DNA of 64,000 nucleotides from Mobula hypostoma. Lineage: Eukaryota. The DNA lies in the NCBI RefSeq assembly GCF_963921235.1, contig NC_086097.1, positions 150,476,001-150,540,000 on the forward strand. Reading direction: 5' to 3'. This document shows positions 22,161 through 54,536 of this stretch, piece after piece (position 1 is the stretch's first letter; each line of letters starts with the position of its first letter). The notes under the pieces were generated by a model that saw only the letters and a program-made list of their open reading frames with translations, did not search any database and had not been told where the DNA came from. Made by a program: the position numbers and the translations under genes.

Positions 22161-23255
22161 ATACTCAATCTCAGCAAGAATTGAGTATCAAAGAATTGAT
22201 TATGGACTTCAGGAAGGGGAAACTGGGAGAACGCACACCAGATCTCACCGAGGGGTCAACAGTGCTAAGAGTGAGTACCTACCTTCATTCCTTTGTCACA
22301 TCTCGGAGGATCAGTCCTAGGGTCAACACATTGATATAATCACAAATTAGGCACAGCACTTTACTCTATTAGGAGTTTGATGAGATACAGCACGTCATAT
22401 GAGACGTGTAACAGTATGGCACATCGGATGTGTAATGGTATGTCACATCGGACGTGTAATAGAGACTAACAGTATTGTGAACAAAGGAAAAAGCAGAGAA
22501 TTTGTGGAAGGTGGAAGACTGAGGTCAAACTTTTAAATTGTTTACAACTTAACTTAGAAATCAAAGATAAGTAGTTGCTTGAGCTGGAAACCTAATGCTA
22601 CCCAAAAGACACAACCTACTTGTGATAAGGGTAAAGACAATTGGAAAGAAAGCTGAAACACAACCACAGAACCTTGGACAATAGACAATAGACAATACAC
22701 AACAGGTGCAGAAGTAGGCCATTCGGCCCTTCGAGAGCAGTAGGTCACCCAAAGTGGAAGATGGGAAGTATAAAAATGATATTTTGAAAGGATTCAATTT
22801 ATTGGAAGCATCCAACATCTTTTGTCAACAGGTTTGCCACTGTCTTTCTGGTATCAAGATGTGTTTGGCATCTATTTGGTATCAAGATCCTATTACGGTG
22901 AAGCATTACAGTTTCTTTGGGCTCCCAGGAAAAGACCAAGTGTTTCCTGGATCTGTAGCCATGACTTATGAACTTCTGTTAAAACTAGCAGGCCCCTTTT
23001 TTCCTATCCATTATGAACTCAATTGTTGACCTATTCATGATCGCCCAGTTGCTCAACTTAAAATATACAAAATGATATATAGAGTCTTAGTCAAAACCAG
23101 TAATTATGTCAACATTGGCATCAAACAAATTACAAAAGCTTTTCAGAACAACATTTAGAAAGTCCATGCAAAGAGTAAAATAAAATATCAAAAAACTGCA
23201 TATGTTAGAAGCTTGAAATGAAAAAGGAGGCTGGAGACACTCAGCAAGCCAGGCA

Positions 23256-23522
23256 AGAAATGAGTATGGTGGTAGCCTTGGATGCAGAAAAAGCATTTGA
23301 TAGATTGGAATGGGATTTTTTATTTAAAGTATTAGAAAAATATGGGTTAGGTGTACATTTTATAAACTGGATTAAAACTTTAAACACTAATCCTAACGCT
23401 AAAGTAGTGACAAATAGTCAAATTTCAGCACCATTCCAGTTAAAAAGGTCAACTAGACAAGGTTGCCCATTATCACCTGCTTTATTCGTATTGGCGATAG
23501 AACCATTAGCAGAACTAATTAG
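23256..23522 (+). mobile_element. 5' stub of a 5'-truncated L1 (RT region), cut by the duplication junction
   Basis: VVALDAEKAFDRLEWDFLF...RQGCPLSPALFVLAIEPLAELIR; preceded by TSD half agcaagccaggca. Confidence 0.9.
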
Positions 23523-26500
23523 GTAAGGGAGAAATACAAAGAGATCTAGCAGTACTTGTTCATCAGTTTGTGAAGGTGAATGAGCAAGTGCAGCAGGCAG
23601 TGAAGAAGGCTAACGAAATGTTGGCCTTTATTACAAAGGGAATGGAGTACAAGAGCAAGGAAATCCTTTTGCATTTGTACAGGGCCCTGGTGAGACCACA
23701 CCTGGAGTATTGTGTGCAGTTTTGATCTCCAGGGTTAAGGAAGGACATCCTGGCTGTGGAGGAGGTGCAGCGTAGCTTCACTAGGTTAATTCCTGGGATG
23801 TCCGGACTGTCTTACGCAGAGAGGTTAGAGAGACTGGGCTTGTACATGCTGGAATTAAGGAGATTGAGGGGGGATCTGATTGAGACATACAAGATTATTT
23901 AGGGATTGGACAAGATAGAGGCAGGAAATATGTTCCAGATGCTGGGACAGTCCAGTACCAGAGGGCATGGTTTAAGAATAAGGGGTAGGTCATTTAGGAC
24001 AGAGTTGAGGAGGAACTTCTTCTCCCAGAGAGTTGTGGAGGTGTGGAACGCGCTGCCTCAGAAGGCAGTGGAGGCCATTCTCTGGATGCTTTCAAGAAGG
24101 AGCTAGATAGGTATCTTATGGATAGGGGAATCAGGGGTTATGGGGACAAGGCAGGAACCGGGTATTGATAGTAAATGATCAGCCATGATCTCAGAATGGG
24201 GGTGCAGGCTCGAAGGGCCGAATGGTCTACTTCTGCACCTATTGTCTATTGTCTATTGAAAATGCAGGTGTTGTACCTGTCCCTGCCATTGATACAAAAA
24301 TTGCCGCCCTTTCATGTTATTAAAAGATGTTTAATTGTTTCAGTTGTTCATGTAGGTGTTATCTGTTGTTGAGCTAGTCCTTCCTGCTTCCTTTACTGTT
24401 GGTGTTCTGCTAATATCAATTCTGTTGTTATTTTACCAATTGTTGATACAAATAATTATGTGATCTCAGTGGTCTGGTGTAACTGTTGCTTCTATTTGCT
24501 GCTGGAGTAGATTTTACTGGTAACGTTTTCCTTATTTACTTCAGCCTTTCCGATGTGCTCTCTGCCACTACTCCTGTAACATGGCTGGGTCACTGAAGAG
24601 ACATTACCACAAGAAACACCCCAATGATGAATATGTCAATGCTGGGACTGGTGTGCTCGCTCAGGAGAGTGTGGCGCAACAAGGTATCTGGAGTTTGAAA
24701 TACTGCATGTTGCTTAAAGAAACATTAATCACTGTAATATTTTTACGTTGTGATTTAATTTTCCATGCGACATCATCAGTGAAGGTTCTTTGACCTGAAA
24801 TGTTAACTCTATTTCTCTTTGCACAAATGCAGCCTGACCCAAGCAGTTTTTCTTTGGCATTTCATGATTTTGTTTCAGCATGCCACTTGCTCGCTTTTAC
24901 ACAGAACATAAGATCACAGCACAGCAACAAGCCATTTGGCCCACAGTGCTGTGCCAAACCAACTGAAAACAAAAATCAGAAACACCCAAACACTAATCCC
25001 TCCTACCTACACCATGTCCATATCCCTCCATCTTCCTTACATCCATGTGCCTATCTAAACATCTCCTAAAAGCCTCTAATGTATTTGCCTCTGCCACCAT
25101 ACCAGGCAGCACATTCCAATCATCCACGGCTTTCCAAGAAAAAACTTACCCCTCGCACCCGACTTGAGCCTACATTAATGCCCTCTATTATTGGACATTT
25201 CATCCCTGGGAAACAGATACTCTCTGTCCACTCTATCTATGCCTCTCATAAACCTATTAGGTCTCCCCTCCACCTCCGACATGCCAAAGAAAACACCCCA
25301 AGTTTATCCAGCCTCTCATGATAGCACATGCCCTCGAAACCAGGCGGCATCCTGGTGAACCTGTTCTTCACCCTCTCCAAAGCCTCAACACTCAACACCC
25401 TTCCTATAGCGGGACAACCAGCATGGTATGCAATACTCCAGATGTGGCCTAACCAGAATTTTATAAAGTTGCAACACAAATCTTCCTTCCTGGCATTCAA
25501 GAATCCCTGGCCAGATTTTGTACTTCTATCCATACTGGTTGTCTTCCATGTCTTGTTGACACTGGTTGAATATCCTGTTTCTGTGGATTGGCTTTTATTC
25601 ATATGTAACTTGTGATTAGTAACATCAGATTTAAAAAGCAAGTGGACCTGTCAGGACTTTCTGCAGAGTCTAACATCCCTTGGGTTATTAGGCACTTGTC
25701 AAGGGCCAATAAAAAGAGGTTAAACCAATAAAAAGGAGAGGTTTTTGTGTGAGGCTTGACACTAGCACCTGGTAGTGTGAGAGAGAGGACAGAGTTAGAG
25801 TGGGAACTGAGGTTTTGGCTCAAGGTGCTTTGGCAAGAGAGGTGGAGGCTTGGTTGAGGTTTGTCAGTTTTCTGTTTCTCTCTTTATCAGTGCCTAACTT
25901 GAGTTGTGAGAATGGATCCCAGGGCAGTGGTGTGCTCCTCTTCTGGGAGATTTGGGCAACCTCCAGTCTTTTTGATTGCTACAGCTGCAAGAACTGCATC
26001 TGGGTGCAACTCCCTACAGATCATGTTAGAGAACTGGAGCTGGGTGACCCGTGCCTCATTTGGGAGAATAATCAGTTGAGAGATAGGAGCTACAGGGAGG
26101 CAGTTACACTTGCATTGCAGGAGACAGGTAGCTGGGTGACTGTCAGGAGAGGGAAAGGGAATAGGCAGACAGTGCAGAGAACTCCTGTGGCCATTTTCCT
26201 CAATCACAAGTAGTACCACCTTGGATACTGGTCCGGGGGACAACCTACCAGGGAAAGCTGCAGCAACTACAGTTCAGATGGGAAGAGGGCAAGAAGAGGA
26301 GAGTGATGATGTTGGGAGATTCAGTTGTTAGGGTACAGACAGGAGATTCTTTGGAAATGAAAAATACTCCACATGATGATATATTGCATGTCAGGTGCTA
26401 GCATCAGGGACATCTTGGATCAGGACCACAGCATTCTGAAGAGCAGAGATGAGCAGCCAGAAATTGTGATACCAACGACATAGGTAGGAAAAGAGATGAG

Positions 26501-28604
26501 GTCCTGAAGTGTGAATATAGGGGTTAGGTAGGACGCTAAAATGCGTGCCTCAGGTGTGGCATCTCAAGGGCGATGCCTGTGCCAAGCACCAGTGAGGGTA
26601 AGAATAGGATGATATGGCAGATGAAGAATTGGTGCAGCGGGGCAGCGTTTAAGATTTGTGGATCATTGGGGCTCTTCTGGGGAAAGTATGACCTGTACAA
26701 AAAGGATGGGTTACACCTCAACTTGAAGGGAACCAATATCCTTGTAGGCAGGTTTGCTAGAGTTGTTGGGCAGGTTTTAAAGTAGGTTGACCTGGGTTAG
26801 GAACTGGACTGATAGGTTGGAGGATGGAGTAGACGGTGTACAGGTAGATGCAACATGTAGACACATGTAGAGAGTCTGTGGGGACGGATAGGCAGTGGGG
26901 AGAGCATATTTGCACTCAGTTGGATGGGTTGAAATGTGTCTTATTTTAATGCAAGAAGTCTCAGGAACAAGATGATGAACTTAGAGCATGGATCAGTACA
27001 TGGAACTACAACATTCTGGCCATTCTGGCTGTCACAAGGGGAGGATGGCTGCTGGATGCCTCTGGCTCTAGATATTTCAAAATGACAGGGGTAGCGGAGT
27101 GGCATTGCAAATCAGTAGTAGTATCACAACTACAGAAAGGGAGAACGTTGTGGAGGCATCATCTACTGAGTGGATGTGGATGGAAGTCAGAAACAAGAAG
27201 GGAACACACACTTTTGGGAGTGTTCTATAGAATCCCGAGTAGTAACAAATTTCCGGAAAGTGCAGAAATACCAGGGTTATTGTTATGGGTAACTTGGACT
27301 TACCTAGTATTGTTTGGCACCTCCTTACTGCAGAAGTTTTAGGGCGGCAGAATTTATTAGGTATGTCCAGGAAGAAGTCCTGACACATTACGCAGACAGG
27401 TCGACTGAGAAGCGAGTACTAGTGGATTGAGTACAAAACAATGAATGAAATCAAGGAATGGATCTCGTAGTGTGTGACATTTGGGAGACAATATAGAAAA
27501 CTAATTAATTGGGGGGGAGGGTGAATTATGATGCGATTGGGCAGGAATTTAGGAGCATTAATTGGGAAAGGATATACTTGGAAAATGTGCAGTGGGCATG
27601 TTTAAAAATTAAATATTTAAAGTAAATTTATTATCGAAGTACATATGCGTCACCATATACAAACCTGAGATTTGTTTTCTTGTGGGCATACTCAGTAAAT
27701 CCAAGTATCATGAAGGACCACACCCAAGAGGGCAGTCAAACAACCAGTGTGCAAAAGACAACAAACTGTGCAAAGGCAAAAGAGAAAGTAAAAATAATAA
27801 ATAAATAAATAAATAAATAGACATTAAGTATTGAGAACATGAGATGAAGAGTCTTTGAAAGTGAGTCCATAGGTTCATGGGAATAGTTAAGTGATGCAAC
27901 AAGTGAATTTATCCCCACTGGTTCAACAGTCCAAAGGTTGAGGGATAATAACCATTCCTGAACCTGGTAGTGTGAGTCTTGAGACTCCTGCACCGTCTTC
28001 CTAATGACAGCGCAAGAAGAGAGCATGACCTGGGTGCTGGGGTCCCTGATGATGAATGCTACTTTCCTGTGACAACGTTTCTTGTAGATGTGCACAGTGG
28101 AGGGGAGGGCTTTATCTATGATGGATTGGGTCAAATCCACTACTTTTTGTAGGATTTTCTGTTCAAAGGCATTGGTGCTTCCATATCAGGGGATGATGCA
28201 GCCAGTCAATATACTGTCTACCACACATCTATAGAAGTTTGTTGAAGTATTAGCTGGCATGCGAATCTTCACAAACTTCTAAGGAAGTAGAGGTACTTCA
28301 TAATTGCATTTACGTACTGGGCCCAGGAAAGTTCCTCTGAAATGATAACACTGGGGAATTTAAAGTTGCTGATCCTCTCCACCTTTGGTACCCTGATGAG
28401 GACTGACTCATGGACCTCAGATTTCCTCCTCCTGAAGTCAATATTCAGCTCTTGGTTGAGCTGACATTGAGTGAGAGGTTGTTGTGGCACCACTCAGCCA
28501 GATTTTCGGTCGCTCTCCTATATGCTGATACATAGCATTTTCATAGGGCCCTGGTTTGGTTTGTCCAATTGAAGAAGGCAAAGGATGGTAGAGAGAAGGT
28601 ACAA
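23519..28604. repeat. Right arm of inverted duplication (the part whose partner is visible in this window)
   Basis: About 5.09 kb mirror of the left arm with an empty LTR site (single CTAT at 25051-25054); only about 7 substitutions noticed by eye. Confidence 0.97.
24545..24683 (+). pseudogene. ZFAT: Duplicated, inverted copy of ZFAT exon C (orphan)
   Basis: Reverse complement of 13027-13165 with intact splice sites; no upstream ZFAT exon found on the plus strand. Confidence 0.85.
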
Positions 28605-29607
28605 CGGTTGACAAGAGATGTAGAACATGTAGTCAAGAGGAAGAAAAAAATATACTTAAGGTTTAAAATATTAATTTCCAGATAGCAATTTCTCCCAGTT
28701 CTTTGTTCTGTTTCCTCCCTCAATCAACAATGTCAAGAACATTTATTTCATTGTTGCTGAAGGCAAGTTGTATTTACAGTCCAAAAGTAATTCACTTTCT
28801 TGGAACTCTTTTTTAGTGTGTCTTATAAGTTTAAAGAACACAGTATCGATTCTTCGGCCCACAATGCTGTGCCAACCTTTTAACCTACTCCAAGATCAAG
28901 GTAACCCCTCTCTCACTCCCACATAGCACTCCATTTCTCTGTTATTCATGTACCTATCCAAGAATCTCTTAAGTGTCCCAACCACCAGCCATGGCAGTGT
29001 GTTCCATGAACTTAGCACTCTTTGTGTTTTAAAAAAAACTCCCTCAAACATAGCCCCATTCACCTTAAAATTATCCCCTTTCATATTAACACAACACACA
29101 CAAAATGCTGGAGGAACTCAGCAGGCCTGGCAGCATCTATAGAAAAGAGTACAGTTGACGTTTCAGGCTAAGACCCTTCAACAGGACTCTTTCATATTAG
29201 CCAGTTCTACCATGGGAAAAGGTGCTGGATCTCCACTCTACCTAGGCCTCTTATCATCTGATACATGTGACAGAAATAAACCAAGTTGCCAATTTTCATG
29301 TTTTTTCAACTTACTAATCATACCTGTCACCCTCAATGCATATAATAAACAGCAATACTGTTCCTGGTTCTGAACGTTCCCACGATGTTTCTGATGATTG
29401 TTCATTAGCCTGAAATAGCAACATTTCCTCTTTATTTTGCACACTTTCAGAATGTTTTAGTCTGAAATTTTAAAATTTTTCATTTGGCTTCACCCCTATC
29501 TCTGTATTTTGTGTAATTTTACAGTTTTACTGTTGAATATGTTACCTTTCCACATATCAGCAGCTTTAACTCTGAGAAGTTTGCATTCCAGTTAGAGAAA
29601 GCTGACT

Positions 29608-32600
29608 TCCTAACCCATATTTTTCTAGTACTTTAAATAAAAAATCCCATTCTAATCTATTAAATGCTTTTTCTGCATCCAAAGCTACTACTATACTCTT
29701 CTTATCCCTTTTTTGTGCCAAATGAATTATACTGAGTAGCCGAGTTACATTATCTGCCAATTGTCTATTTTTAATAAATCCTGTTTGATCCATATGTATT
29801 AATTTTGGTAAATATTTAGATAATCTATTCGATAAAATTTTTGCTATTATTTTATAATCCGTATTCAATAAAGAAATAGGCCTATATGATGCTGGTTTCA
29901 TAGGATCTCTGTCTTTTTTTGGCAATACTATTACAATCACTGTTGAAAAAGATTCTGGAAGTTTATGTATTTTTTCTGCTTGACGTATTAGTTCCATAAA
30001 AAGAGGAAATAATAAATCTTTAACTTTTTTATAAAATTCAGGTGGAAAACCATCTTCTCCTGGAGATTTATTACTTTGGAGTGATCCCAAAGCTTCTTCA
30101 ACTTCTTTTAATGTAAAAGGCATATCTAATCCCTTCTGTTCTTCCAAATTCAATTTTGGAAGAGAAACTTGTGATAAAAACCTTTCTATCTCATTAACAT
30201 CATTTTGGGATTCTGTTTGATATAATTCAGAATAGAAATTTTTAAAAGTTTTATTTATTTCAAGAGGTTTATAAGATATTTTATTTGCCCTTGTTCTAAT
30301 TGCATTTATTGTTTTGGAAGCTTGTTCTGTTTTCAACTGCCAGGCAACAATTTTATGTGCTCTCTCACCTAACTCATAATACCTTTGTTTAGTTCTTATA
30401 ATTGCTTTTTCCGTTCTATATGTCTGAAGCGTATTATATTGTAACTTCTTATTGACAAGTTGTTTTCGTTTTTCTTCTGACATATATCTTTGAGATTCTT
30501 TTTCTATTTTTGTAATCTCTTTTTCCAATTGATCTAGTTCTGCCATATATTCTTTCTTAATTTTAGACGTATAACTTATTATCTGGCCCCTAAGATATGC
30601 TTTCATCGCATCCCATAATATAAATTTATCATCCACTGAATGAAAATTTGTATCCAAAAAAAATTGAATCTGCTTTTTCATAAAATCACAAAAATCTTGA
30701 TGTTTTAATAATGTTGAATTAAATCTCCATCTATAAGCCACTTCTTCCATATCAGCCATTATTATTGTCATTAATAAAGGGGAATGATCTGATAATATTT
30801 TTGCTTTATATTCCATATTTTTCACTCTGTGTTGAATATGCATTGATAATAGAAACAAATCTATCCTTGAGAAAGTTTTATGTCTATGGGAGCAGAACGA
30901 ATAGTCTCTTTCTTTAGGATTGATTCTTCTCCATATATCAATCAGATTTAAATCCTTCATCAATGATAAAGTTAAATTTACTGCCTTCGATTTTATAACA
31001 GCCTTGGTTGATCTATCTAAGACTGGGTCTAAGCAAAAATTAAAGTCTCCTCCAATTAATATTTTTTCATGCGCATCCGCCAAATTCAGAAAAGCTTCTT
31101 GTATGAATTTTGCATCATTTTCATTTGGTGCATAAATGTTCATAGAAGTCCATAGTTCAGAGAAAAGTTGACAATGTATAATCACATATCTCCCCGCAGA
31201 ATCAATTATTACATTTTGTATTCTAATTGGTAACGTTTTATTGATCAAAATTGCTACTCCCCTCGCTTTTGAATTAAATGAAGCCGCAACAACACTACCC
31301 ACCCAATCTCTATTTTTTTATTTAAAGTACTAGAAAAATATGGGTTAGGAACATCTTTTATAAATTGGATTAAAATTTTAAATTCTAACCCTAAAGCTAA
31401 AGTGGTGACAAACTCTCAAATTTCAACACCATTCCAGTTAAAAAGGTCAACTAGACAAGGTTGTCCACTATCACCTGCTTTATTTGTATTGGCGATAGAG
31501 CCATTAGCAGAATTAATTAGAATTGATCCAGATATTATGGGTTTTAGAGTTAATCAGGAGGAATATAAAATTAATCTTTTTGCCGATGATGTTTTGATCT
31601 ATTTAACAAATCCACAATATTCATTACATAAATTATCTTCTAGATTGGATGAATATGGGAAGGTATCAGGTTACAAAATAAATTGGGATAAAAGTGAAAT
31701 TTTACCTCTTACTAACGGAGACTATAGTCAATGTCGATTAGTAACCCAATTTAGATGGCCGGTAAATGGTATTAAATATTTAGGTATAAGACTTGATAAT
31801 GATCTAAAGAATTTATATAAATTTAATTATTTACCACTATTGAAAAAAATTCAAAAAGATCTTGACAAATGGATGATATTACCAATAACATTAGTAGGTA
31901 GAGTCAATGTTGTAAAAATGAATATATTTCCTAGATTACAGTATCTGTTTCAAACACTACCAATACAATTGCCACAGAAATTTTTTCAAGAGTTAAATAA
32001 ATGTGTGAGAAAATTTCTTTGGAAAGGTAAAATGTCAAGAATATTATTGGAAAAATTGACATGTAAATTTGGGTTAGGAGGGTTACAACTTCCAAACTTT
32101 AAAAACTATTATAAAGCAAATCAACTTAGATTTATTGCATCTTTCTTCGATGATCGAAAACCAGCATGGATTAAAATAGAACTAGACAAGATAGGAGAAC
32201 ATAGACCTGAAGATTTTATATATAAATGGGATTCTAAATTGATACGGGAAAAGAAAGAATCTCCTATACTAACACATTTGATTGATCTATGGAATAAGAT
32301 AAATGTTGATAATGAAACACAGAAATCTCTATTAGCAAGGAGACCTTTGTTCCAAAACAGACTTATTCCTTTTACAATGGACAATCAACTTTTATATAAT
32401 TGGTACCAAAAAGGGATTAAATTCATAGGATATTGTTCTGAACGAGGTATATTGAGGTCATTTGAACAATTAAAGGACAAATATAAAATATCTAATAATA
32501 CTTTCTTTTGTTACTTTCAATTAAGGGCTTACTTAAAAGGTAAGCTGGGTCAAACAATGTTTTTGCCAAAACCTAATGAAATTGAAATTTTAATTCAAAA

Positions 32601-33515
32601 AGGGAAAATTTAAAAATTTATTTCTTGTATGTATAATTTGATTCAAGAACAGACAATTAAACAAGGAACCCATAAGTCAAAGCAAAAATGGGAAACAGAT
32701 CTGAATATTATTATTGATGAAACAAATTGGTCAAGACTTTGTCTTGACAGTATGACAAATACAATAAATGTTCGACTTAGATTAGTACAATATAATTTTT
32801 TACATCAATTATATATTACACCGCAAAAAGTAAATAGATTAAATTCAAATTTATCTGATAAATGTTTTCGGTGTAATCAAGAAATTGGTACTTTTTTACA
32901 TTCTACTTGGTCTTGTTTTAAAATTCAACCCTTTTGGATAAATTTAAGAATCTTATTGGAACAAATTACTGCAATCCAACTTCCACATAACCCTATATTA
33001 TTTTTGTTAGGTGATATTGAAGGGATAAAACCGAAACTTAAATTGAATAAATATCAGAAAGAATTTATAAAAATTGCATTGGCAGTAGCTAAGAAGACTA
33101 TAGCAGTTACTTGGAAATCTGATTCGTATTTAAGTATGGATCGTGGGAATAATGAAATGGCTAGTTCTATTCCACTCGAAAAAATTACTTATAATTTAAG
33201 AGATAAATATGTAACATTTTTGAATATTTGGCGCCCTTATTTACAAAAGATAGGATGGCATATTTAAGTGCTCTGATAAAGACTTTGGTCACTTGGGGAA
33301 AGTAACGAATAATTATACCAAATTCATTTTGAATCCCATGGAGCATGTGGAAACCTTCCAATAACCAGGCGGTTCTTTTCTTTTTTTTCTTTTTTTTTAA
33401 TTTTTCTTTCTTTTTAGGTAGGACTATATATGGGGGGGGGGGAGGGTAGATTCTTTTCTTTTTTTCATGTATTCTTTTTGAAAATTCAATAAAAATTATA
33501 TTCCCAAAAAAAAAA
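29608..33515. mobile_element. L1-clade LINE with 5' inversion (29608-31311 minus, 31312-33515 plus)
   Basis: APE endonuclease plus RT N-half on minus (NIYAPN, GGDFN, SDH); RT C-half (FADD) and Cys-rich domain on plus; poly(A) 33506-33515; TSD gaaagctgact at 29597-29607 and 33516-33526. Confidence 0.93.
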
Positions 33516-34869
33516 GAAAGCTGACTCATTGGGAGGTGGCTGAATTTAACAGTAATATATCACCCAGTAGCGCGTTGAACACTGCTCAAAAATGCAGACT
33601 GAGTGATTGGCCTGGAGGATTGTTATAAATATCAACTGTAACAAAAGCTGCTCTGTATTCGATCTGATGAGCTCAGTGAAAAGGAACATATCTCAAGGAA
33701 TTGCTTCATTCTTTGGAACTGATATCTTAGTTCCTTGGAAATGAAAAGCTGTCAAGTCTGCTGCCTTTAATATCACCTGGCTTACCATTAAAGAGGTGCA
33801 CCACTAGATCAGCTACTGTACATAAATACCGTGACTCACCTAAAATCCTTTCCATCATCTGAAAGGCACTAGTCATAGTTTTTTTGGGAATACTTCCTTC
33901 TTGCTTGATGAGTGCAGCTCCAACACCAGTCAAGGCGGACAGAACAGCCCACTTGATTAGTACCCCATTTATGACTCTAAACATTTATTCCCTCCACCTG
34001 CTGTGCACACTGGCTGCAATGAGCAGCACTTGCAAAATGCAGCGCAGTTATTTGCCATGGCTAACCCGTTAACACTCCCCAGAACCGTGACTTATCACCA
34101 AGAAGTGCATGGGCAGCAGACTCACGGGAGCACCACTACCTCCAGTTACTGTCCATATCACAACATCCTGACCTGGGAATGCTTTGCCAGCCCTTCCTTG
34201 TCACTGGTCTAAACTTCTCACCGGCAGTGATGTGGGAATACTTCCACCATATTACTCCTTCAATGCCCTAGTAATACGTGAGCCATTGAAGGAATACAAT
34301 AAAGATTCCTTGACTGGTTCCAGGGATGGCAGCTTTGACAAATGAGGAGAGCTTGTATAGTTTTAACCTGAATTCTGTAGAACTTTGGAATAATGACAGA
34401 TTATCTCATTGAAAATTCACAATGCCAAATCCCCTTAAGATGCTAAGAACGTAGAGGCACCAACATGCTTTCTGAACCTACAGCATGATTGCATCAACGT
34501 TCTGAGCCCAGAACAGGTCATCCAAGATGTTAACACTCAGGAGTTAGAGTGTCTCCACCACTGACCCACCAAAGAGAACGACCATGTGGTCTCCCTGCTC
34601 CCCCTTTCTGAAGTCAGTGACTAACTCCTTAGTTTTCACTTCTTTGATTCCTATGTTGTGTCGTATCTCCATCTTCACAAGTCTTCTATAAAGTATTATC
34701 AAGCTGTCCTTCCAATGTGAGTGTCTACTCTACCCACTTCCAAGGAACAATTGAAGTGCTGAATATGAATGGAAATGCAAGGCAGTTGAAATGGGAAATT
34801 GTTTCCAGCTGTGAACCCTGAATTCCTGCAGAATCTGGTTAAATGTTATATAAACAGCAACATATTGTT

Positions 34870-35530: not shown

Positions 35531-35589
35531 TTCTTAAATGCTATCAACTCTTACAGTTAATTCTAAATTCTAAACGGGAATGTCCAAAA

Positions 35590-36220: not shown

Positions 36221-36403
36221 TTTTCAGAGTTTTTCACATTAAATTAGCATTTAATTCTCAGTCATTCTGAATGTAATATTGAAAGTCACCGATCATTGAA
36301 GTCAGGGTGCACAAAACTGGTTAATGACATTTTGGAGTTTCAAAGGTAGCTAGAGTATTAGAAGATTTTTTTGAAAGAAAATTAATTTCCTCTCTCTTAT
36401 AAG

Positions 36404-42590: not shown

Positions 42591-43469
42591 GTGAGTAAAG
42601 CAGTGTAACATGTGGCCACGTTGATAACTGTAACTCTCTAATATAAACACCAGTTTTGAATTACTGTGAACCAAGATCATTTCAGAGTAGCAATCTAAGA
42701 GTATGCAATTAAGTTACACAGTTAAGGTTTAGAGTATTTTGTTGAAGATTGGTTTACAGACCTCATAAGCACCTAATATGTAGTTGGTAACATGTGCAAT
42801 GATTCATGTAAGAGTTAGTGTAGTAGGACATGTAGAAGTAACTAGCACTTTGGTGAATGGGAGTGTATAATAAACTAGTAAGTGGGAAGGAAGGAATTTA
42901 CATAATACCTGGGTTGAAATCTATCATTATCGTCAGGATAAGGACACCATCACATTAATACCAGCCAAGTTTAAGTCACGCATAAACCATGTTTAAATTT
43001 CCTTTCTGAGCAACTGATTTATTAAGGAGTCATAGAATACCATAGAGCAAAAATAGCCCCTCCAGACTAGTCCATGCCAGCCTTGTCTTCTGCCTAGTCC
43101 CACCTATAAGCAATTGGACCACAGCCCTCCCTACCTCTCCAATCCACGTACCTATTGGAGTTGATTTGAAGAGCCTGTGAGTGTCTTCGGGCTAGATGGC
43201 AAAATCTGGGCCCCAGGCGAGTCACTGAGCAGCGTGGTCAAGGCTCAGAGCCTTTCGTAGCAGTGGTGCCTAGGTCCTAGTGTGAGGTACAGTACGCTGT
43301 TTAGAGAAGTTAAACACTAGCCCAGATTGGAGGCAAGAGCTGACTTTGCCTGCTCTCTGCGATCGGAGCCTTTTGCTGTTCAGTTGTTTGGTCAATTTAA
43401 ACACTGACTCAGATAGACTGAAAAGACAGGGTGTCGAGATCGGAGGCGAGAGCCAATTTTGCTCGTTCT

Positions 43470-44560
43470 CCGTAGTGGTCATTTACTTGGATTTTCAGAA
43501 GGCATTTGACAAGATGCCACACACGAGGGTGCTTAACAAGATAAAATCCTGTGGCGTTACAGAAAAGATACTGGCATGGATAGCGGAATGGCTGACAGGC
43601 AGGAGGCCGCGAGTGGGAATAAAAGGAGCCTTTTCTGGTTGGTTGCCGGTGACTAGTGGTGTTCCTCAGTGGTCAGTATTGTGACCGTAATTCTTCACAT
43701 TGTTTGTCAACGATTTGGATAATGGAATTGATGGCTTTATGACAAAGTTTGTGCCAGAGGTAGCTGGAGGGGTAGGTAGTGCTGAGGAAGCAATGCGATT
43801 GCAGCAGGACTTAGACAAATTGGAGGAATGGGCAAAACAGTGGCAGATGGGACATTTATGATAATGTATTTTAGTAAAAGGAACAATAGTGTGGACTATT
43901 ATCTAAATAGGAAAAAGGTTCAAACATCCGAAGTACAGACAGAGTTAGGAGTCCTCGTGCAAGACTCCCAGAAGGTTAATTTGCAAGTTGAGTCTGTGGT
44001 AAAGAAGGCAAATGCAATGTTGGCATTTATTTCAAGGGGAGTAATGTATAAAAGCAAGGGGATAATGTTGAGCCTTTATAAGATGCTATTCAGGCTGCAC
44101 TTGGAGTATTGACAACAGTTTTGAGCCCTTTATCTCAGAAAGGATGTGTTGTCATGGAGAGAGTCCAGGTGAGGTTCACAAGGATGATTACGGGAATGAA
44201 GGAGTTAAGATATGAGGAGCATTTGGCAGCTTTGGGCCTGTACTCGCTGGAATTTAGAATTGAAACCTACCAACTGTTGAAAGGACTAGATAGGGTGGAT
44301 TTGAAGAGGATGCTTCCTATTGTGAGGGTACCTGGAACTAGAGGGCATAGCCTCAAAATTGAGGGGTGACATCTTAGAACAAAGGTAAGAAAGATTTCTT
44401 TTAGCCAGAGAGTATTGAATCTGTGGAATGCTCTGCCACATCAAAGGATATTGCGAGAAGTTGAATGGAGTTGAATGAGATTAGCCATGATGAAATTTCA
44501 GAGCAGACTCGATGTGCTGAATGACCTAACTCTGCTGCTCTGCCTCATGCTCTTATGGTC
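43470..44560 (+). mobile_element. Decayed CR1 RT and 3' end
   Basis: VIYLDFQKAFDKMPH, VTSGVPQ, KKANAMLAFISRG. Confidence 0.82.
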
Positions 44561-44719
44561 ATCTCCATGGCACTGAGGCTATGAAGACTGCCCCAGCTCT
44601 TGCCCACTAATGTGATGAACTGATATACAAGGCCTTGGGCCTACTCCGGTCTGTCCAGATATTCCAGGGTTGAGTGACGGGCCAATGAAATGGCATTTGC
44701 TGTGGACTTGTTGTGCCGG

Positions 44720-45990
44720 TAGACAAATGGCAGCTGATCCAAGTTGCTTCTTAGTTGATAGGTTTCATCACCAACTTCTCAAAATATTTCATTGCTGCAG
44801 ATGTAAGTGCTACAGGCTGATGGTCATTGAGGCAGGTCACCATGTTCTTCTTAGGCACTGGTATAATTGAAGCCTGCTAGAAGGAGATAGATACCTCAGA
44901 CTGCTGAAGAGGGAGTTTAAATACCTCAGTGAATACTCCAGCCAGTTCTTTAGTACTGGAGTGTAGCACAGGTCTTTAGTACTCGGCCGGTACCCCATCT
45001 GGGCTGGATGCTTTCTATGGATTCACTCACCTCGGCCTAAGAGACTGAAATCACAGGATCATCAGAGGCTGTGGGATTTCGTGATGGTTCTTCCATGTCT
45101 TGTCAGTTGAAGTGAACATACAAGACATTCAGCTCACCTGGATGTGAAGTTCCGTTGCCACCTAAGATGCACGAGAGCATTTAAGCATTGCCTCTGTTGT
45201 TGAGCATCCTTCATTGAGTCAAGTTTACTTCAGAATTGCCACTTCACTTTTGAGATGGCTTTCTGGAGATCGTACCTGGACCTCTTGTAACTTTCTTGGT
45301 TGCTAGACCTGAATGCCTCTGATCTGGCCCTTGGAAGATTGCGGAGCTCATGTCCATCCAGGGCTTCTGGTTGGAAAAGACTCTAGATAATTTTAGGGGC
45401 CACATGCATCTACTACTGTTTTTATACAGTTTGTGACAAACATAGTGTATTCATTCAGATCCACAGATAAGTCCTTGAACACAGCCCAATCCACCAACTC
45501 AGCAATCCCATAGCCTCCCGTGATCCCATAGCCACTTCTTTGTCGTTGTAGTCTCTACAACCTTGTTGTTTAGCCTCTGTCTGTATGTAGGTAGGAGGAG
45601 GACTGCCAAGTGATCTGACTTCCCAAAATGTGATCTGGGCATGGAACTGTAGACATTCCTTACCCTGCTATAACAGTGGTCTGCTGTGTTGAGAGCCTCT
45701 GCTGCTACAGGTTATATGCTGATTCTAACTGGGCAGGGATTTCTTCAAACAAGCCTGATTGAAATTCCCAACTATGATATAAAATGAGTAAAGGTGAACT
45801 GTTTCTTCTTTGGCAACAGCATCATGCAATATCTCAAGCACTTGATTATAGTTGGCAGCTGGTGGTATGTAAACTGTGGACAGGATTACAGAGGAGAACC
45901 CTCTTGGTAAATAGAGCAGTCAGCACTTGATCGTTAGGTGTTATAGGTTGGGGGAATACGAGTACCAAACCACCACATCAGACATTTCAA
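44720..45990 (-). mobile_element. Decayed Rex1/Babar-like LINE endonuclease region
   Basis: Minus strand has cattttgggaagtcagatcacttggcagtcctcctcctacc and cagaagccctggatg, as at 56800-57080. Confidence 0.6.
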
Positions 45991-46444
45991 TTTTGGCACA
46001 GTGTAAAGAATTCACTGTGCTTTTAGTCACTTTAAAAAGTCTGTCCGAGCTCAGTGTTTATCTTGTTATTTAAAGCAATGTACATTTGTAAGATTTGACC
46101 AGATTTATAGAAAATCATAAATTATTGGAAATCTCAACTTCTTTGTACTTGAAGATGGGGCATTAGCATAAACTAGAAAATGATTTGTTTCTGATCAGTG
46201 CTAAAGGGACTGATTTCAGTTGTTGACAGGGCGTTAGTGACATGCCCTTAAGCATTCTACTAATTGCCTAAGTGGTAACATGCTGATAAAGATTAGTATT
46301 CTGATTCACAAGTGCAAAACAAAACTGAAGTCATGTGGACAATTAGTGCCATTAATGAATCTACAGTATGTTGGCTGAAGATGTAACGTACAACAATCAA
46401 ATATTGCTTTGACCCATGATGAACGTGTTGAATTGTTATTTAGA

Positions 46445-48368
46445 CAGATAGATAGTTTATTGATCCCAAAAGAAATTCATGTCAATGGAGCATTACAAGT
46501 GCGCAGATACACAAATATTAGAAGAGAAGAAAGAAAAAAATAAAAATTAGTTAGCTCAAACAGTCTATCAGGAAGGGGTCATCACTTCCCTGGCTACAGG
46601 TTGACTCATTATAGAGCCTAATGGCCGAGGGTAAGAATTACCTCATATAGTGCTCTTTGGAGCAGCACAGTTGTCTTAGTCTACGTCCACACTATGCCCG
46701 ATAATTTTGAAAACAAAGCTTTTTCTCTTCGTTTTGACCCTCCGTCCACACTAAAATGGCATTTTCATCCCCTGAAAACAGAGAATTTCAGAAACAGTCT
46801 CCAGAGTGAATAAATCTGAAAACTCCTAATATCCGTTACAGTGTGGACGGGGTAACCGGAGATTTTTAAAACCGCTGTCATGACGTGCCGGAACAGATGG
46901 CGGCAGTGCGGCATTTCATTGTTTTCTTCTTATGATTATTATTACTTTATTGTCGCCAAACAATTGATACTAGACCATACAATCATCACAGCAATATTTG
47001 ATTCCGTGCTTCGCAGAACCTAACAATTTCAGAACAGACAGCAACAAGACTGAAGCCAGAAGAGTTAGAAATATACTCACCAAATACTTTGACCCATAGC
47101 TTACTGAATAAATAAGTATACTCACTTTGCCTCGTTTTCTGTCCTTGGTTGTATGAAGGTGGTTTACCTATTTATGCAAGTACTTCTCTGACAATAGATG
47201 TGTAACAGCCTAATGTAACATTGTATGGAAATACAAGATAACACTGATGCAGACATGTTTTATACATTTAACAAGGTGCTTTATTAATGCAACAGAGTTA
47301 GTCAGTTTTTCAATGTTCATCGTCAGCCGGGTCATACTGTCCGTGAACTCCCTGTCGGTTGCCTCCATACACCCCAGTATTTTTTTTTCAAATTTAAGTC
47401 CTCCTGCACGAGAGCCAATAGCAATTCCTTTTAAGTTTTTCTACTCTGTAACTGGACAAACGCGTGCCAAGTATACCGTTTCCTCTTCGCTTGTTTTCTG
47501 TGTGTCCTGCGCATGCCCAGTAAGAGGAGATTCGCCCAAATATCTGTTCTAATGTGGACAGAGATATTCTGAAAAACGCTTAGTGTGGATGCCTGTCGTT
47601 TTTACTCGAAATCGGCATTTTCAAAATTATCCGGGATAGTGTGGACGTAGCCTCTGTCTATTACTAAAAGTGCTCCTCTGTTCAGCCAAGGTGGCATGCA
47701 GAGGGTGAGAAACATTGCCCAGAATTGCCAGGATTTTCCAAAGGGTCCTTTGTTCTACCACAGCCTCCAGTGTGTCCAGTTTGACTCCTATAACAGAGCC
47801 AGCCTTTCTAATCAGTTTTTTGAGCCTGTTGGCATCACACGTGTTGATACCATTGCCCCAGTATACTACCTCAAAGAAGATGTACAGACTAGTAGAACAT
47901 GTGAAGGAGGGGCCTGCATACTCCAAAGGGCCTCCATCTCCTCAGGAAGTAGGGGCAACTCTAGCCCTTCTTGTACACAACCTATGTGTTGGTGCTCCAC
48001 TCAAATCTGTCATCCAGGTGCACCTCCAGGTAGTTATAGGTCTTCACCACATCCATACCATCAATGGAGGCTTAGTCTTCCTGGAGTCCATCACCATCTC
48101 CTTTGTCTTACTGATGTTGAGCTGCAGATGATTCAGCTTGCACCATTTGACAAAGTCCTCTACCAGAGCCCTGTATTCATCCTCCCTTTACACACCCAGC
48201 TATTGCTGAGTCATCAGAGAATTTCTGTAGATGACATCACTCAGTGTTGTATCTAAAGTCTGAGATATACAGGGTCAACTGCAAGGGACCACACAGCTCT
48301 GACGCTGTACAAACGGTAGTCTGCCAGTCAGGCAGTCTGTTATCCAGGTTACAATGAAAGTGCCAACC
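46445..48368 (-). mobile_element. Rex1/Babar-like LINE interrupted by a MITE and truncated by L1
   Basis: Same family as 16510-17295 (DANRLKKLIRKAGSVIGVKLDTLE...HPLH); WITDCLTGR. Confidence 0.78.
46679..47652. mobile_element. PIF/Harbinger-like MITE
   Basis: About 33-bp TIRs ctacgtccacactatgcccgataattttgaaaa / ttttcaaaattatccgggatagtgtggacgtag; internal ccacact/agtgtgg subrepeats; TSD not clean. Confidence 0.72.
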
Positions 48369-51300
48369 GGGGTGACGTACTGTGATGACGTGGGATGGAG
48401 ACGTATGAATCCAGCTCTCCCGTAAAAAATCAGCAAAGTACCGTTTAAACAAAGCAAAGTTAATAAATACTTTCCGAAAACTACTTATAAACTTCTCAAG
48501 ACTATTTTACGATATGCCTCATAAACCGCAACAGAAGAAGACTGCTGTTGTGAAGTCGCCACGAGACAGGAAGAAAAAATGGCCTACTGCAGCGATGGAA
48601 CCTTGGACTCAGGTTGGATCTTCTTCAAAAGACACACATTTTATCTCTGGCATAGAAGAACAGGGAGCAATGGCGGCGGTAGCGGTCCCTGAGAAGAAGA
48701 TGCCGGAATTGCGCATGTACAAAGAAGTAGGCATGTGCAAATCGATACAACTCAAACTACAAGAACTGACGGCCACTGCAAGCGAAAATGACTCAGAGTC
48801 AGAATTGGATTCCGCAGAGAACACAGATGATGAAGAAGAGGAAGAAGAACTGGAAGAGACTAAAAGTAAAGGATATGATGGAGACATAAAAGAGGTTTTA
48901 TTGCAAGTAATGATTGAATTAAAAGGATTAAAAATAGAGATTAGAAACATGAAGCTGAGCTATGATAAAGCTATGAAAAGACAGGAGAAAATGGATAAGA
49001 AACTTCAAAAGTTGGAAAGAACAATGGAGCATATTAATGACAGAGTGGAAAAAACAGAAAATGATGTGCTTGTCTGGAAAACGGAAAGAAATTGACTGTT
49101 GGAAAAAGTGGACGTGCTGGAAAATTTTAGTAGATAAAATAATATTAAGATTGTTGGTCTTAAAGAAGGTATAGAGGGAGACAATCCAATAGAATTTTTT
49201 CTAAGATGGATCCCGGAAACTTTGCAAATGAAAGGGGGAGACCAATCAATTGAAATTGAACGGGCACATAGAGCTCTTAAGACCAAAACCTCAAGATGAC
49301 CAATATCCACGATCAATTTTAATAAAATGTTTAAGATTTCAAGACAAAGAAAGGATTCTATAGGCAGCTGCTCAAGCTGCCAAGAATAGAAAAGGAGCAT
49401 TGATGATAGAAGAGAACAAATTTTTTTTCTACGCTGACATAAGTTACAAAATTTGAAGAGAAGGAAGAAATTTAATCCAGTGAAAGAGGTCCTATGGGAT
49501 CACGGCTATCAATTTATACTGCGCTACCCTGCAACCTTGAAGATTTTTTGGCTGGCGGAGAAAAAGGATTTTTTGACGATTACCAGAAAGCAGAGGAGTT
49601 TGTGCAAGATTCTTTGAAGATACAAGAACAAAACCAGGGGAGCGAGATGGATTAAAGATGAAGATTTGGTCGAGGAATAGACTTGGTGGATTTTTAAAGG
49701 TGAAAGAATATATAAATATATTATTAATTATATGATAGCGGGGAAGAAAGGTTAAAGTCTGAAGAATATTAGTTGCGAATAGTGACCTTAATTTTTCTAT
49801 ATATATACAATTTTTTTTGTTCCGGGGGAGCTGGAAGAAATACTGACCAATCGCTACAGAATTCATGTGTGCAAGCATGGCTATAGCCACGACCCGCAAA
49901 ATGGAGTGGGGTAGTATTGTCCTTTTTTTCATTCACAACATTAGTAGGGGGGTATTTTGTTATTTTTCCTTTTGTATCATATCTATCTTTTGTTTCTTTC
50001 CTTTTGCCTGGATGATTGGGAGGGAAACACATAGCAACATGGTGAAGTTTAAAGAGATTCCCCAAGGAACTATGAGAGTTAAGATGTTAAGTAATGTTTT
50101 TTCCAAATTATGAACCCTCATGAATATTTATGCACCAAATGAAAATGATGCAAAATTTATACAAGAAGCTTTTTTGAATTTGGCTGATGCACATGAAAAA
50201 ATATTAATAGGAGGAGATTTTAATTTTTGCCTAGACCCAGTCTTAGATAGATCAACGAAGGCTGTTACAAAATCGGAGGTAGTAAAACTAACTTTATCAT
50301 TGATGAAAGATTTAAATTTGATTGTTATATGGAGAAGAAACAATCCCAAAGAAAGAGACTATTCGTTCTACTCTAATAGACACAAAACTTACTCAAGGAT
50401 AGATTTTTTCCTATTATCAATCAATATTCAACACAGAGTGAAAAATATGGAATATAAAGCAAAAATATTGTCAGATCACTCTCCTTTATTAATGACAATA
50501 ATAATGACTGATAAGGAAGAAGTGACTTATAGATGGAGATTTAATTCAATATTATTAAAACGTCAAGATTTTTGTGATTTTGTGAAAAATCAGATCCAAT
50601 TTTTTTTGGATACAAACTCATTCAGTGGATGATAAATTTATACTATGGGATGTGATGAATGCATATTTGAGGGGTCAGATAATAAGTTATACGTATAAAA
50701 TTAAGAAAGAATATATGGCAGAACTAGATCAATTGGAATAAGAGATTACAAAATTAGAAAAAGAATCTCAAAGACATGCGACAGAAGGAAAACGAAGACA
50801 ACTTGTCAGTAGGAAGTTACAATATAATATGCTTCAGACATATAGAACGGAAAAAGCAATCATGAGAACTAAGCAAAGGTATTATGAGTTAGGTGAGAGA
50901 GCACACAAAATTCTTGCTTGGCAGTTGAAAACAGAGCAGGCTTCCAAAACGATAAATGCAATTAGAACAAGAGCAAATAAAATTACTTCTAAACCTTTAG
51001 GAATTAATGAAACCTTCAAAAGTTTCTATTCTTTATTATAGCAATCGGAATTACAAAATGATGTTAATGAGATAGAAAGGTTTTTATCACAAATAACTCT
51101 TCCAAAATTGAATTCGGAGGAACAGAAGGGATTAGATATGCCCTTTACATTAAAAGAGATTGAAGAAGCTTTAGGATCACTTCAAAGTAATAAATCTCCA
51201 GGACAGGATGGTTTCCCACCTGAATTTTATAAAAAGTTTGAAGATTTATTATTTCCTCCTTTTATGAAGTTAATACGTCAAGCGGAAAAAATACATAAAC

Positions 51301-53825
51301 TCCCAGAATCTTTCTCAACAGCGATTGTAATAGTATTGCCAAAAAAAGGATAGAGATCCTTTAAAAACCAGCATCATATAGGCCTATTTCTTTGTTGAAC
51401 ACGGATTATAAAATAATAGCAAACATTTTATTGAATAGATTATCTAAATATTTACCAAAATTAATACATATGGATCAAACAGGATTTATTAAAAATAGAC
51501 AATTGGCAGATAATGTAACTCGGCTACTCAGTATAATTCATTTGGCACGAAAAAGGGAGGAGATGAGTATAGTAGTAGCCTTGGATGCAGAAAAAGCATT
51601 TGATAGATTGGAATTGGATTTTTTATTAAAAGTATTAGAAAAATATGGGTTAGGAACACCTTTTATAAACTGGATTAAAACTTTAAATACTAACCCTAAT
51701 GGTAAAGTAGTGACAAATAGTCAAATTTCAACACCATCCCCATTAAAAAGGTCAACTGGACAAGGTTGTCCATTATCACCCGCTTTATTTGTACTGGCGA
51801 TAGAGCCATTAGCAGAACTAATTAGAATTGATTCCGATATTAAGGGTTTTAGAGTTATTCAGGAGGAATATAAAATTAATCTATTTGCTGATGATGTTTT
51901 GATTTACTTAACAAACCCACAGCATTCGTTATGTAAATTATCTTCTAGGTTGGATGAATATGGGAAAGTATCAGGGTATAAGATAAATTGGGATAAAAGT
52001 GAAATTTTACCTCTTACTAAAGGAGACTATAGCCAATGTCGATTAGCAACCCAATTTAGATGGCCGGTAAATGGTATAAAGTATTTAGGTATAAGACTTG
52101 ATAATGATGTAAAGAATTTATATAAATTTAATTATTTACCACTATTGAAAAAAATTCAAGGAGAGCTTGACAAATGGATGATACTACCAATAACATTAGT
52201 GGGTAGAGTCAATGTTGTAAAAATGAATATATTTCCTAGATTACAGTATTTGTTTCAAACATTACCAATATAATTGCCACAGAAATTTTTTCAAGAGTTA
52301 AATAAATGTGTGAGAAAATTTCTTTGGAAAGGTAAGATGCCAAGAATATCATTGGAAAAATTGACATGGAAATTTGAATTGGGAGGGTTACAACTTCCAA
52401 ACTTTAAGAATTATTATAAAGCAAATCAACTTTGATTTATTGCATCTTTCTTTGACGAACAAAAAGTGGCAATGGATTAGAATAGAATTAGATAAGATAG
52501 GAGAAAATACACCCGAAGATTTTATACATAAATGGGAATCTAAATGGATACGGGATAGAAAGAATCTCCTATATTAAACATTTGATTGATCTATGGAATA
52601 AGATAGATGTTGATAATGAAATAAAGAAATCTTTATTAGCAAGGAGACCTTTGATTCAAAACAGACTTATTCCTTTTACAATGGATAATCAACGTTTATA
52701 TAATTGGTATCAAAAAGAGATTAGATGTATAGGAGACTGTTATGAAGGAGGTATATTGATGTCATTTGAACAATTAAAGAATAATTATAAAATATCAAAT
52801 AACACTTTCTTTTGTTACCTTCAATTAAGGGCTTATTTAAGAGACAAACTGGGTCAAACAATGTTTTTGCCGAAACCTAATGAAATTGAAATTTTAATTC
52901 AAAAAGGAAAAATTTAAAAAATTATTTCTTTTATGTATAATCTGATTCAAAAACAGACACTTAAACAAGGAATTCACAAGACCAGACAAAAATGGGAAAC
53001 GGATTTGGGTATTAATATTGATGAAACAAATTGGTCAAGATTATGTCTTGACAGTATGACAAATACAATAAATGTTCGACTTAGATTAGTACAACATAAT
53101 TTTTTACACCAATTATATATTACACCGCAAAAAATAAATAGATTAAATTCAAACTTATCTGATCAATGTTTTCAGTGTAATCAAGAAATTGGCACTTTTT
53201 TACATTCTACTTGGTCCTGTTCCAAAATTCAACCTTTTTGGATAAATTTAAGAGTTTTATTGGAACAAATTACTGGAACTCAACTTCCACATAACCCTAT
53301 ATTATTTCTATTAGGTGATATTGAAGGGATAAAACCGAAACCTAAATTGAATAAATACCAGAAAGAATTTATAAGAATTGCATTGGCAGTAGCCAAGAAG
53401 GCTATAGCAGTTACGTGGAAATCTGATTTGTATTTAAGTATGGATCGTTGGAATAATGAAATTCTTAGCTGTATTCCACTTGAAAAAATTACTTATAATT
53501 TAAGAGATAAATATGATACATTTTTGAATATTTGGCACCCTTATTTACAAAAGATAGGTTGGCATATTTAGGTACTCTGATGATAAAGATGTTGGTCCTT
53601 TGGGGAAAGTAAAAAATAAATATATTAAATTTATTTGAATCCTGTGGAGCATGTGGAGACCTTCCAATATCCAGGAAATCTTTCTTTCTTTCTTTTTTTT
53701 TCTTTTTCTTTCTTTTAGGTAGGGGTATATATCGGGGGGAGGGGTTAAGAAGAGGGGGGAGGGTAGATATTGTTATTCCATGTAATCAAGCGTGAAAACT
53801 TAATAAAAATTATATATAAAAAAAA
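48369..53825 (+). mobile_element. Near full-length but mutated L1-clade LINE (5'UTR, ORF1 from 48514, ORF2 pieces 50120-53571, poly(A)); apparently chimeric
   Basis: ORF1 coiled coil plus LENFSR.NNIKIVGLKEG and IEIERAHR; ORF2 NIYAPN, LDAEKAFD, FADD, CxxC..H..C; the 5' and 3' flanks do not share a TSD. Confidence 0.92.
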
Positions 53826-54536
53826 GCAAGCCGGGCAGCATTTGTGGAAAGAGAAATAATTAAATGGGCCCTGAAGAAGGGTTTGGCGTGAAATGATGAC
53901 TGTTTATTCTTTTCCATAGATTCTGTCTGACCAACTGAATTCCTCCAGTGTTTTGTGTGTGTTGTTTTGGATTTCCAGCATCTGCTGATTTTCTTGTGTT
54001 TGCAATTAAATTTGTACTTTTTTGATCCTTGCTGAGTGTTTCCAGTATCATCTGGTTTAATCCGTACACACACCACAAAGCCTTATCCTTGTTTCCTGAT
54101 GCAGTTTCTATAGTTTCAGTAAAGGTAAAGAAAGGCAGTTCAAAACCTGTTCTGACTGAAGATAGTCCTTGTAGTTACACTCTGGGGATCTGTTCCCCAC
54201 TCCTACTACTTCCCTGTATTATTTCTTATTCAGAGTCAAGTCACTTCTGTATCATGTTTGCCTGGACTTGGGTTGCATGCAGACTCTCAGTTCACTGGAT
54301 TTATTTCAATGCTATGAACATTCAGGGTCATGGTCTTCAATTCTGTAACCTTTAGGCTTATCTACTGATGCACTCGTAAATTTGCACAGCCCATCCCTTC
54401 CTATCACGTTTTGTTGATCATTTCTGTATTAATAGCTTTGTCTCTATCCTTTGCCCCCATGAGTTAACCTCCATCCATAAATGATCTTCATGTGAACTAT
54501 AGGCCCTGCCAAACTCTCATTTCTCCAAAAAAAAAG

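Follow-up and report, generated by a model that had tools for sequence, protein, structure and literature searches.

The stretch of DNA analysed here, referred to below as the window, comprises 64,000 nucleotides of the ray Mobula hypostoma (assembly GCF_963921235.1, contig NC_086097.1, positions 150,476,001 to 150,540,000 of the forward strand) and contains part of the gene ZFAT together with what appears to be an inverted copy of a more downstream part of the same gene, bounded at both ends by L1 sequence. Six ZFAT exons are present, numbered here by the amino acids of P0006:

56156..56330, minus strand, native exon A (approximately residues 857-915), located by tblastn
19614..19702, minus strand, native exon B, 89 nt (residues 914-943)
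13027..13165, minus strand, native exon C (residues 944-990)
24545..24683, plus strand, copy of exon C, antisense to the gene and identical to native exon C
36404..36525, plus strand, copy of exon D (residues 990-1030)
42461..42591, plus strand, copy of exon E (residues 1031-1074)

With the Mobula ZFAT protein as tblastn query, the minus-strand exons at 56.2, 19.7 and 13.1 kb stand in gene order, and all six exons have AG/GT ends. The exon at 24545 was assigned to ZFAT through 27 matches among 29 candidates, with 100% identity to the Mobula protein; a search of the PDB with the exon returned generic C2H2 fingers only, and no tblastn match to ZFAT exons later than E was found in the window. The plus-strand exon block is accordingly a duplicate of the more downstream part of ZFAT; it extends to 42.6 kb or beyond and stops short of 56.1 kb. 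The order and strand of the exons imply that the flank after 53837 is native intron and, as the native exons are still in order, the gene can be intact. The copied segment is delimited by the following features, in which TSD stands for target-site duplication, LINE for long interspersed nuclear element and RT for reverse transcriptase:

1..14191, minus strand, donor arm, consisting of native ZFAT intron and exon C and extending left beyond the window
14192..23518, no strand given, single-copy spacer of 9.3 kb with native exon B (contig depth 10.3-12.9 at 22200-23286)
23243..23255, plus strand, 5′ TSD half, inside a common short repeat
23256..23522, plus strand, 5′ stub of a 5′-truncated L1, 267 bp from the middle of the RT region, with an open 87-codon frame
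23519..23522, plus strand, junction 1, a 4-nt microhomology (TTAG) common to the L1 stub and a donor CR1-like LINE at 14191-14188
23519..51805, plus strand, inverted duplicated segment of at least 28.3 kb, with the ZFAT exon copies, L1 copy 3, a Rex-like LINE and the long L1's 5′ part
29609..33516, plus strand, L1 copy 3, inside the duplicated segment, with its 5′ part inverted and its own TSD (AGAAAGCTGACT), serving as a control for target preference
47654..48368, minus strand, Rex-like LINE fragment, interrupted within its RT frame, that flanks the long L1 on its 5′ side
48369..53824, plus strand, long decayed L1, a putative chimera with endonuclease and RT domains, within which junction 2 would lie at 51806-53824
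53825..53837, plus strand, 3′ TSD half, followed by the remainder of the short repeat

Comparison of the window with itself shows that 23519-25054 is the reverse complement of 12656-14191 (99.6% identity) and 25051-28604 that of 1-3554 (99.97%). These figures cover 5.1 of the approximately 28 kb (23519-28604), as the other 23 kb on the donor side fall outside the window; the plus-strand ZFAT exons and the TSD indicate that the segment would continue past 28604. The first base of the inverted copy coincides with the end of the stub, the two overlapping in the TTAG. The donor LINE, which shows a match to an RT domain and which we take to be CR1-like, is intact across 14191, and its RT frame runs on to approximately 15773 in the donor only and not in the copy. 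No special structure was found at junction 1, where folding of the DNA at 23440-23600 gave a z of -1.62, with 12 of 200 shuffles doing as well. There is a single duplicated segment; no more than 20 bp of the recipient L1 can be present twice. Each TSD half and each end of the L1 has been kept. The donor arm carries an extra 9.1-kb retroelement with long terminal repeats (LTRs) that is missing from the copy.

The 13-mer AGCAAGCCAGGCA (23243-23255) lies immediately 5′ of the L1 stub and AGCAAGCCGGGCA (53825-53837) immediately 3′ of the poly(A), the A-rich run ending at 53824. The two agree at 12 of 13 positions, the sole mismatch being of CpG type (CG to CA), which bears out the proposal of an earlier note on this DNA that a single TSD has been split 30 kb apart. 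Joined by their coordinates, the flanks align in register with seven relatives of the short repeat, with the 13-mer present once. The note had thus been right that joining restores a common repeat, and right about a relative near 56020, while the one that it placed near 12860 is only a more distant family member with a 27-nt match. The repeat has at least seven relatives in the 64 kb, at positions that include 19000, 29107, 41331, 55540, 56017 and 53838-54050, and is partly palindromic, its 5′ motif returning inverted at its 3′ end. A degenerate search of the window for the 13-mer with at most one mismatch gave four sites against 0.10 expected, a number reached by none of 100 shuffles. As the remaining two of the four (41344 and 56030) belong to this very repeat family, chance has to be weighed against that family. 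Position 5 of the 13-mer is A in both TSD halves and G in these two copies, and the A is also absent from the other seven motif matches listed, one of which is an unrelated CR1 match. Neither an empty site nor the stub's own continuation was found among the contigs listed for 22200-25300.

It is scarcely credible that the 13-mers are not one TSD and that two L1s inserted independently at the same position of two repeat copies. The abundance of the repeat, with seven relatives aligned and two further copies matching the 13-mer with one mismatch, would make this easier, but the A shared by the TSD halves is missing from the other listed copies, the stub would have had to lose its 3′ part and the long L1, separately, its original 5′ flank, and the inverted arm would be left unexplained. 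Nor is there a sign of the recurrent targeting of this repeat that the earlier note had considered, since the two other visible insertion sites, that of L1 copy 3 and the Rex-like sequence at the 5′ end of the long L1, are different.

The stub is identical to 51559-51825 of the long L1 at 243 of 267 positions (91.0%), and the two parent L1s would accordingly be approximately 91% alike, a figure measured over this span only. The last stub mismatch maps to 51805, which sets the lower bound of the switch at 51806. On the 5′ side of the long L1 an RT-bearing minus-strand LINE, presumably Rex-like, is broken mid-frame at 48368, as seen in translation, and does not resume after 53837. Taken together, the limits of the exon block and the TSD would put the distal end of the copy within the long L1, no earlier than 51806, and a native L1 sharing the same 3′ flank is unlikely because native exon A, on the minus strand, lies 2.3 kb past the 3′ TSD half. 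The reading of the long L1 as a chimera, whose 5′ part came from a donor L1 while the intronic 5′-truncated L1 supplied the 3′ part and poly(A), is therefore supported, since the order and strand of the ZFAT exons, the arm starting at the end of the stub and the contig depth described below all fit. The earlier note's estimate by eye of roughly 90% identity agrees with the measured value, the LINE flank that it described is confirmed and its chimera is supported, while its lower bound for the crossover near 51820 is corrected to 51806.

Matches to the endonuclease and RT domains are present in the long L1, with a weak match to zf-RVT (E 0.017), whereas none of four ORF1 pieces matched an L1 family; their motifs are what we assume to be of L1 type. 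Placement in the L1 clade as opposed to Tx1, for which such an ORF1 lacking a zinc knuckle would be expected, is provisional. By eye, the long L1 seems at approximately 50000-50110 to be without the first part of the endonuclease domain present in copy 3. L1 copy 3 itself has long open frames of 583 and 443 codons, and its inverted 5′ part is presumably of the twin-priming type. Absent further indels, the donor L1 would lie approximately 19.8-25.2 kb to the left of base 1. Protein look-ups aimed at the donor L1 or an intact allele found none of five exact long-L1 frames in the collection, and a search with the stub protein gave 11 matches among 830 candidates, the best 86% identical and none of them the pre-duplication allele.

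Over the span shared by the stub, the long L1 and copy 3 the three-way pattern is star-like (11, 10 and 8). Private amino-acid changes were counted against eight outgroup proteins, with poorly aligned positions dropped and 529 + 517 codons kept. The long L1 has 33 in 529 codons before 51806 and 20 in 517 after (p 0.09, not significant), while copy 3 is flat, with 20 in 529 and 19 in 517; in the shared span the stub has 1 in 88 and the long L1 6 in 88. These counts tend to suggest that the 3′ part of the long L1 resembles the stub in being less decayed, but they prove nothing.

Public contigs from 4 of 23 runs were compared over the interval 22200-25300 only, with junction 2 outside it, and joints arising from repeats were left out of the reading. 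Two of the runs (X1 and X2) are one sample of organism A, possibly the assembly's own source, and their contigs show 0 differences over three unique stretches (536, 581 and 769 or 768 bp). Organism B (X5) differs at 7 of 772, 8 of 599 and 10 of 485 letters. Contigs of both organisms run from the unique flank across the 5′ TSD half into the stub, that of organism B for 46 bases. The arm, measured at 24234-25002, has approximately doubled depth in organism A (29.5 in X1 against 12.9 and 10.8 in the flank, a ratio of 2.5; 18.7 in X2 against 11.3 and 10.3, a ratio of 1.7), in contrast to 10.6 against 9.25 and 8.99 in organism B (a ratio of 1.16); the ratios are from single listed contigs and not sums, and contig depth is not equal to copy number. 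Rough Poisson figures for the arm depth are P 2e-6 for one copy, 0.013 for 1.5 and 0.36 for two. Because the single-depth relative B already carries the L1, its insertion is placed before the duplication, and we read the L1 as predating the split of A and B and the duplication as being in organism A only. For organism E (X11) there was no long unique flank contig, and no empty site, among the matches listed, and the flank pattern gave 0 matches in the JGI metagenomes.

The presence of the L1 without extra depth in the relative is the reason for giving very little credence to a rearrangement during the L1 insertion itself, in which the ends cut by the L1 endonuclease would have been remodelled. 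Cases are on record in which an L1 insertion is accompanied by local inverted duplications while its TSD is preserved (bioRxiv 10.1101/2024.12.14.628481). Here, on the other hand, organism B has the flank-stub junction yet single arm depth, and the L1s are approximately 9% apart and decayed, against a difference of at most 0.4% between the arms.

An assembly artefact, with two haplotypes or a fold-back chimeric read placed side by side, would be consistent with arms 99.97% alike over 3554 bp, with the lack of a contig bridging junction 1 among those listed, and with the donor-arm letter carried by the X1 contig at 25154. We nevertheless consider it very unlikely. The depth of the arm is about twice that of the flank in organism A and not in organism B, the region is assembled without a gap or N, the letters at 23550 and 24174 are private to the copy and absent from the repeat family, and a misjoin is not expected to give two in-register junctions in one L1 together with a matching TSD.

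The differences between the arms are unevenly placed, and all but one fall in a single feature:

23528..24174, plus strand, cluster of six of the seven arm-to-arm substitutions, inside the CR1-like LINE beside junction 1

Seven differences are found in approximately 5.1 kb, six of them within 656 bp of junction 1 (P ~3e-5 for a uniform spread). At 23550 and 24174 nearly all of the repeat-family contig depth bears the donor letter, and at 23614 the donor letter is found in three of three informative paralogues in the window, so that three of the six are derived on the copy. Position 23528 is probably derived on the donor, going by the expected motif and one paralogue, while 23616 and 23900 have no assignable direction. 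The sole difference far from junction 1, at 25154, is a CpG site at which the X1 contig (depth 18.1) shows the donor-arm letter, the copy letter being unconfirmed. The cluster may be the result of error-prone synthesis at the microhomology junction, to which we give somewhat less than an even chance. It could instead mark a duplication of greater age in which conversion has homogenised all but the inner edge, a reading that we hold a little less readily, and consensus errors in a high-copy repeat are a rather unlikely third explanation. Raised point mutation near microhomology junctions has been reported (PMC4352052, PMC6902434), and the available portion of PMC8327919 gives no support for divergence rising at inner arm boundaries.

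We regard it as probable that the locus is an inverted insertional duplication, produced by repair of a break in the 5′-truncated L1 from an inverted L1 approximately 91% alike and completed by a microhomology join. In a first step, recorded in the sequence, the 2.3-kb 5′-truncated L1 entered the short repeat in a ZFAT intron and made the 13-bp TSD; a second L1 of the same family presumably lay inverted in a later intron at a distance of some 38 kb, the sum of 28.3 kb and the 9.3-kb spacer prior to the LTR element. The truncated L1 would then have suffered a two-ended break at position 23522 or immediately beyond it. The poly(A)-side end would most likely have invaded the inverted homeologous L1, giving junction 2 and the chimeric L1, and synthesis would have proceeded through the 5′ end of the donor L1 and then back in the direction of the break, copying 28 kb of ZFAT. 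The new strand would have quit its template at 14191, in the CR1-like LINE, and been joined through TTAG to the end of the stub at the observed junction 1. The expected product is a palindrome inside ZFAT with arms of approximately 28 kb, a spacer of 9.3 kb and the native exons in order. Insertion of the 9.1-kb LTR element into the donor arm, by which the arms now differ, would have come later.

That both junctions lie in one 2.3-kb L1 points to a single break. It also counts against a route in two steps, in which a crossover of the inverted L1s would flip 38 kb and a later microhomology join would unite normal and inverted chromosomes. Such a route yields the identical two junctions, LINE-1-mediated inversions are known in human genomes (PMC9675761), and inversion alleles at inverted repeats add haplotype diversity at human loci (PMC11293582). 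Arms drawn from two haplotypes should differ evenly, however, yet six of the seven differences fall in 656 bp, and human LINE-1 inversions have a median similarity of 97.1% (PMC9675761) against 91% here. Overall we consider the two-step route improbable.

A reversed order of events is more improbable still. A fork stalled at the stub would have switched template through MMBIR, a form of break-induced replication that relies on microhomology, copied 28 kb and returned through homeologous L1 annealing. Clustering of substitutions beside the microhomology junction would agree with this, being a reported signature (PMC4352052, PMC6902434), but the homology-first model predicts the same cluster at that junction. 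The homology-first order is favoured because a strand starting from junction 1 would have met copy 3, equally alike and in the same orientation, at 8 kb, and so would have passed an equal annealing partner.

Several observations weigh against the single-break model. The same two junctions could arise from two separate events, and junction 2 is bounded to 51806-53824 only, its position being neither located nor seen. The long L1 and copy 3 are 91.4% identical before the break position and 91.6% after it, and no step appears when their identity is taken in 200-bp windows. Arm identity is measurable over just 5.1 of the 28 kb, none of the listed contigs bridges junction 1, and the polarity of the cluster does not clearly favour the copy. 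The doubled depth, moreover, comes from X1 and X2, one sample that may be the source of the assembly, and contig depth is no copy number.

Further elements were also observed in the window, among them:

3555..12655, plus strand, LTR-internal-LTR-internal-LTR retroelement, in the donor arm only, with the TSD ATAG

This element is very young, with two open 1011-codon frames carrying SCAN and CCHC domains, and is presumably a Gmr1-like Gypsy element. LTR1 and LTR2 are identical, LTR3 differs at five sites within 111 bp, and the internal parts differ at 3 of 3257 positions. No RT or integrase match was found in its frames, and it is probably non-autonomous. At 46678-47653 an element of approximately 1 kb with 36-nt terminal inverted repeats (92%) interrupts the Rex-like LINE and is likely a non-autonomous DNA transposon. 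The spacer holds a near-perfect 230-bp palindrome (20417-20646) inside a longer repeat. By eye, a CR1-like LINE is split at approximately 59200-60790 by an insert that is bounded by TG...CA, has a short direct repeat and itself contains a Rex-like fragment.

The ZFAT pre-mRNA would include, before it reaches exons C-E, an antisense copy of 28 kb, and the 89-nt exon B would form part of the loop. Reverse-complementary matches between introns are said to promote back-splicing and exon skipping (PMC8330042). From the exon phases, skipping of exon B would shift the frame. A more far-reaching reading combines a palindrome of 28 kb formed in one step in an active single-copy gene, at approximately double depth in the ray and absent from a close relative, with a hairpin pre-mRNA that alters splicing and with substitutions that are the fossil of error-prone termination synthesis; as a whole it seems doubtful. 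If it were true, each ZFAT pre-mRNA would be a giant hairpin with exon B looped out and three exons in the stem, and frameshifting exon-B skipping, exon-B circles or heavy editing would be expected. A crossover between the arms would flip exon B and break ZFAT. In mice Zfat is essential. On the far-reaching reading, the substitutions beside the junction would preserve, in the germline of a cartilaginous fish, the trace of error-prone termination synthesis. Natural cases usually offer nothing by which the two ends of the initial break could be fixed, while at this locus the old L1 TSD, the microhomology and the exon order would record the event almost completely, and outside mammals. The locus would show that dispersed L1s 91% alike are able to found a large intragenic palindrome, and would offer a natural test of the effect of a very long intronic inverted repeat on splicing.

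The class of mechanism is already known from human patients and cell assays; no description of this ZFAT locus was found in the literature searched, which did not extend to subscription papers and preprint supplements. The closest counterpart is the LINE-mediated duplication-normal-inverted duplication (DUP-NML-INV/DUP) of case BAB8920 at the human PLP1 locus (PMC6902434), where one template switch took place between L1PA5 and L1PA3 elements in opposite orientation (93% identity) and the other through microhomology. Both have an inverted duplicated segment with single-copy DNA between it and its source and a second junction formed by microhomology (TTAG here). The chimeric L1 made from opposite-oriented L1s in BAB8920 would have a putative counterpart in ZFAT, suggested by the TSD, the 91% stub identity and the gene order. 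Unlike BAB8920, the ZFAT locus involves tens of kb and not Mb, has both junctions in the same small L1 and the L1 TSD at both ends, and belongs to a cartilaginous fish; as just one segment is doubled, it is not a full DUP-NML-INV/DUP and would be the one-segment limit of the class. Long-tract gene conversion can also end by microhomology joining to the second end (PMC5104497), a non-canonical termination by microhomology-mediated end joining that resembles the one proposed here, although that work concerned a reporter with a sister-chromatid donor in mouse embryonic stem cells and tracts of several kb, in contrast to an ectopic inverted repeat donor approximately 91% alike and a tract of approximately 28 kb. 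The two-step model for DUP-TRP/INV-DUP rearrangements, in which an inverted triplication lies between duplications (PMC4352052, PMC11293582), likewise pairs a homology-driven inverted-repeat junction with a microhomology junction and a raised frequency of point mutations, but in ZFAT there is no triplication, the spacer is not duplicated, and the repeats are dispersed L1s rather than low-copy repeats with kilobases of perfect identity. Homology-driven LINE-1 transposable element-mediated rearrangements, with a median similarity of 93.5%, have a chimeric L1 at the junction, as is proposed here (PMC9675761); they are mostly simple deletions, duplications and inversions with both breakpoints in elements, whereas here a non-homologous junction of L1 and CR1-like LINE is added. 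Finally, inverted arms around a spacer, with more than 99% identity over the 5.1 kb compared here, recall the palindromes of mammalian sex chromosomes, for which arms of >8 kb and >99% identity define a large palindrome (PMC8327919). In contrast to these, the ZFAT palindrome shows no evidence for selection or arm-to-arm conversion, and it is young, intragenic and has only three internal exons.

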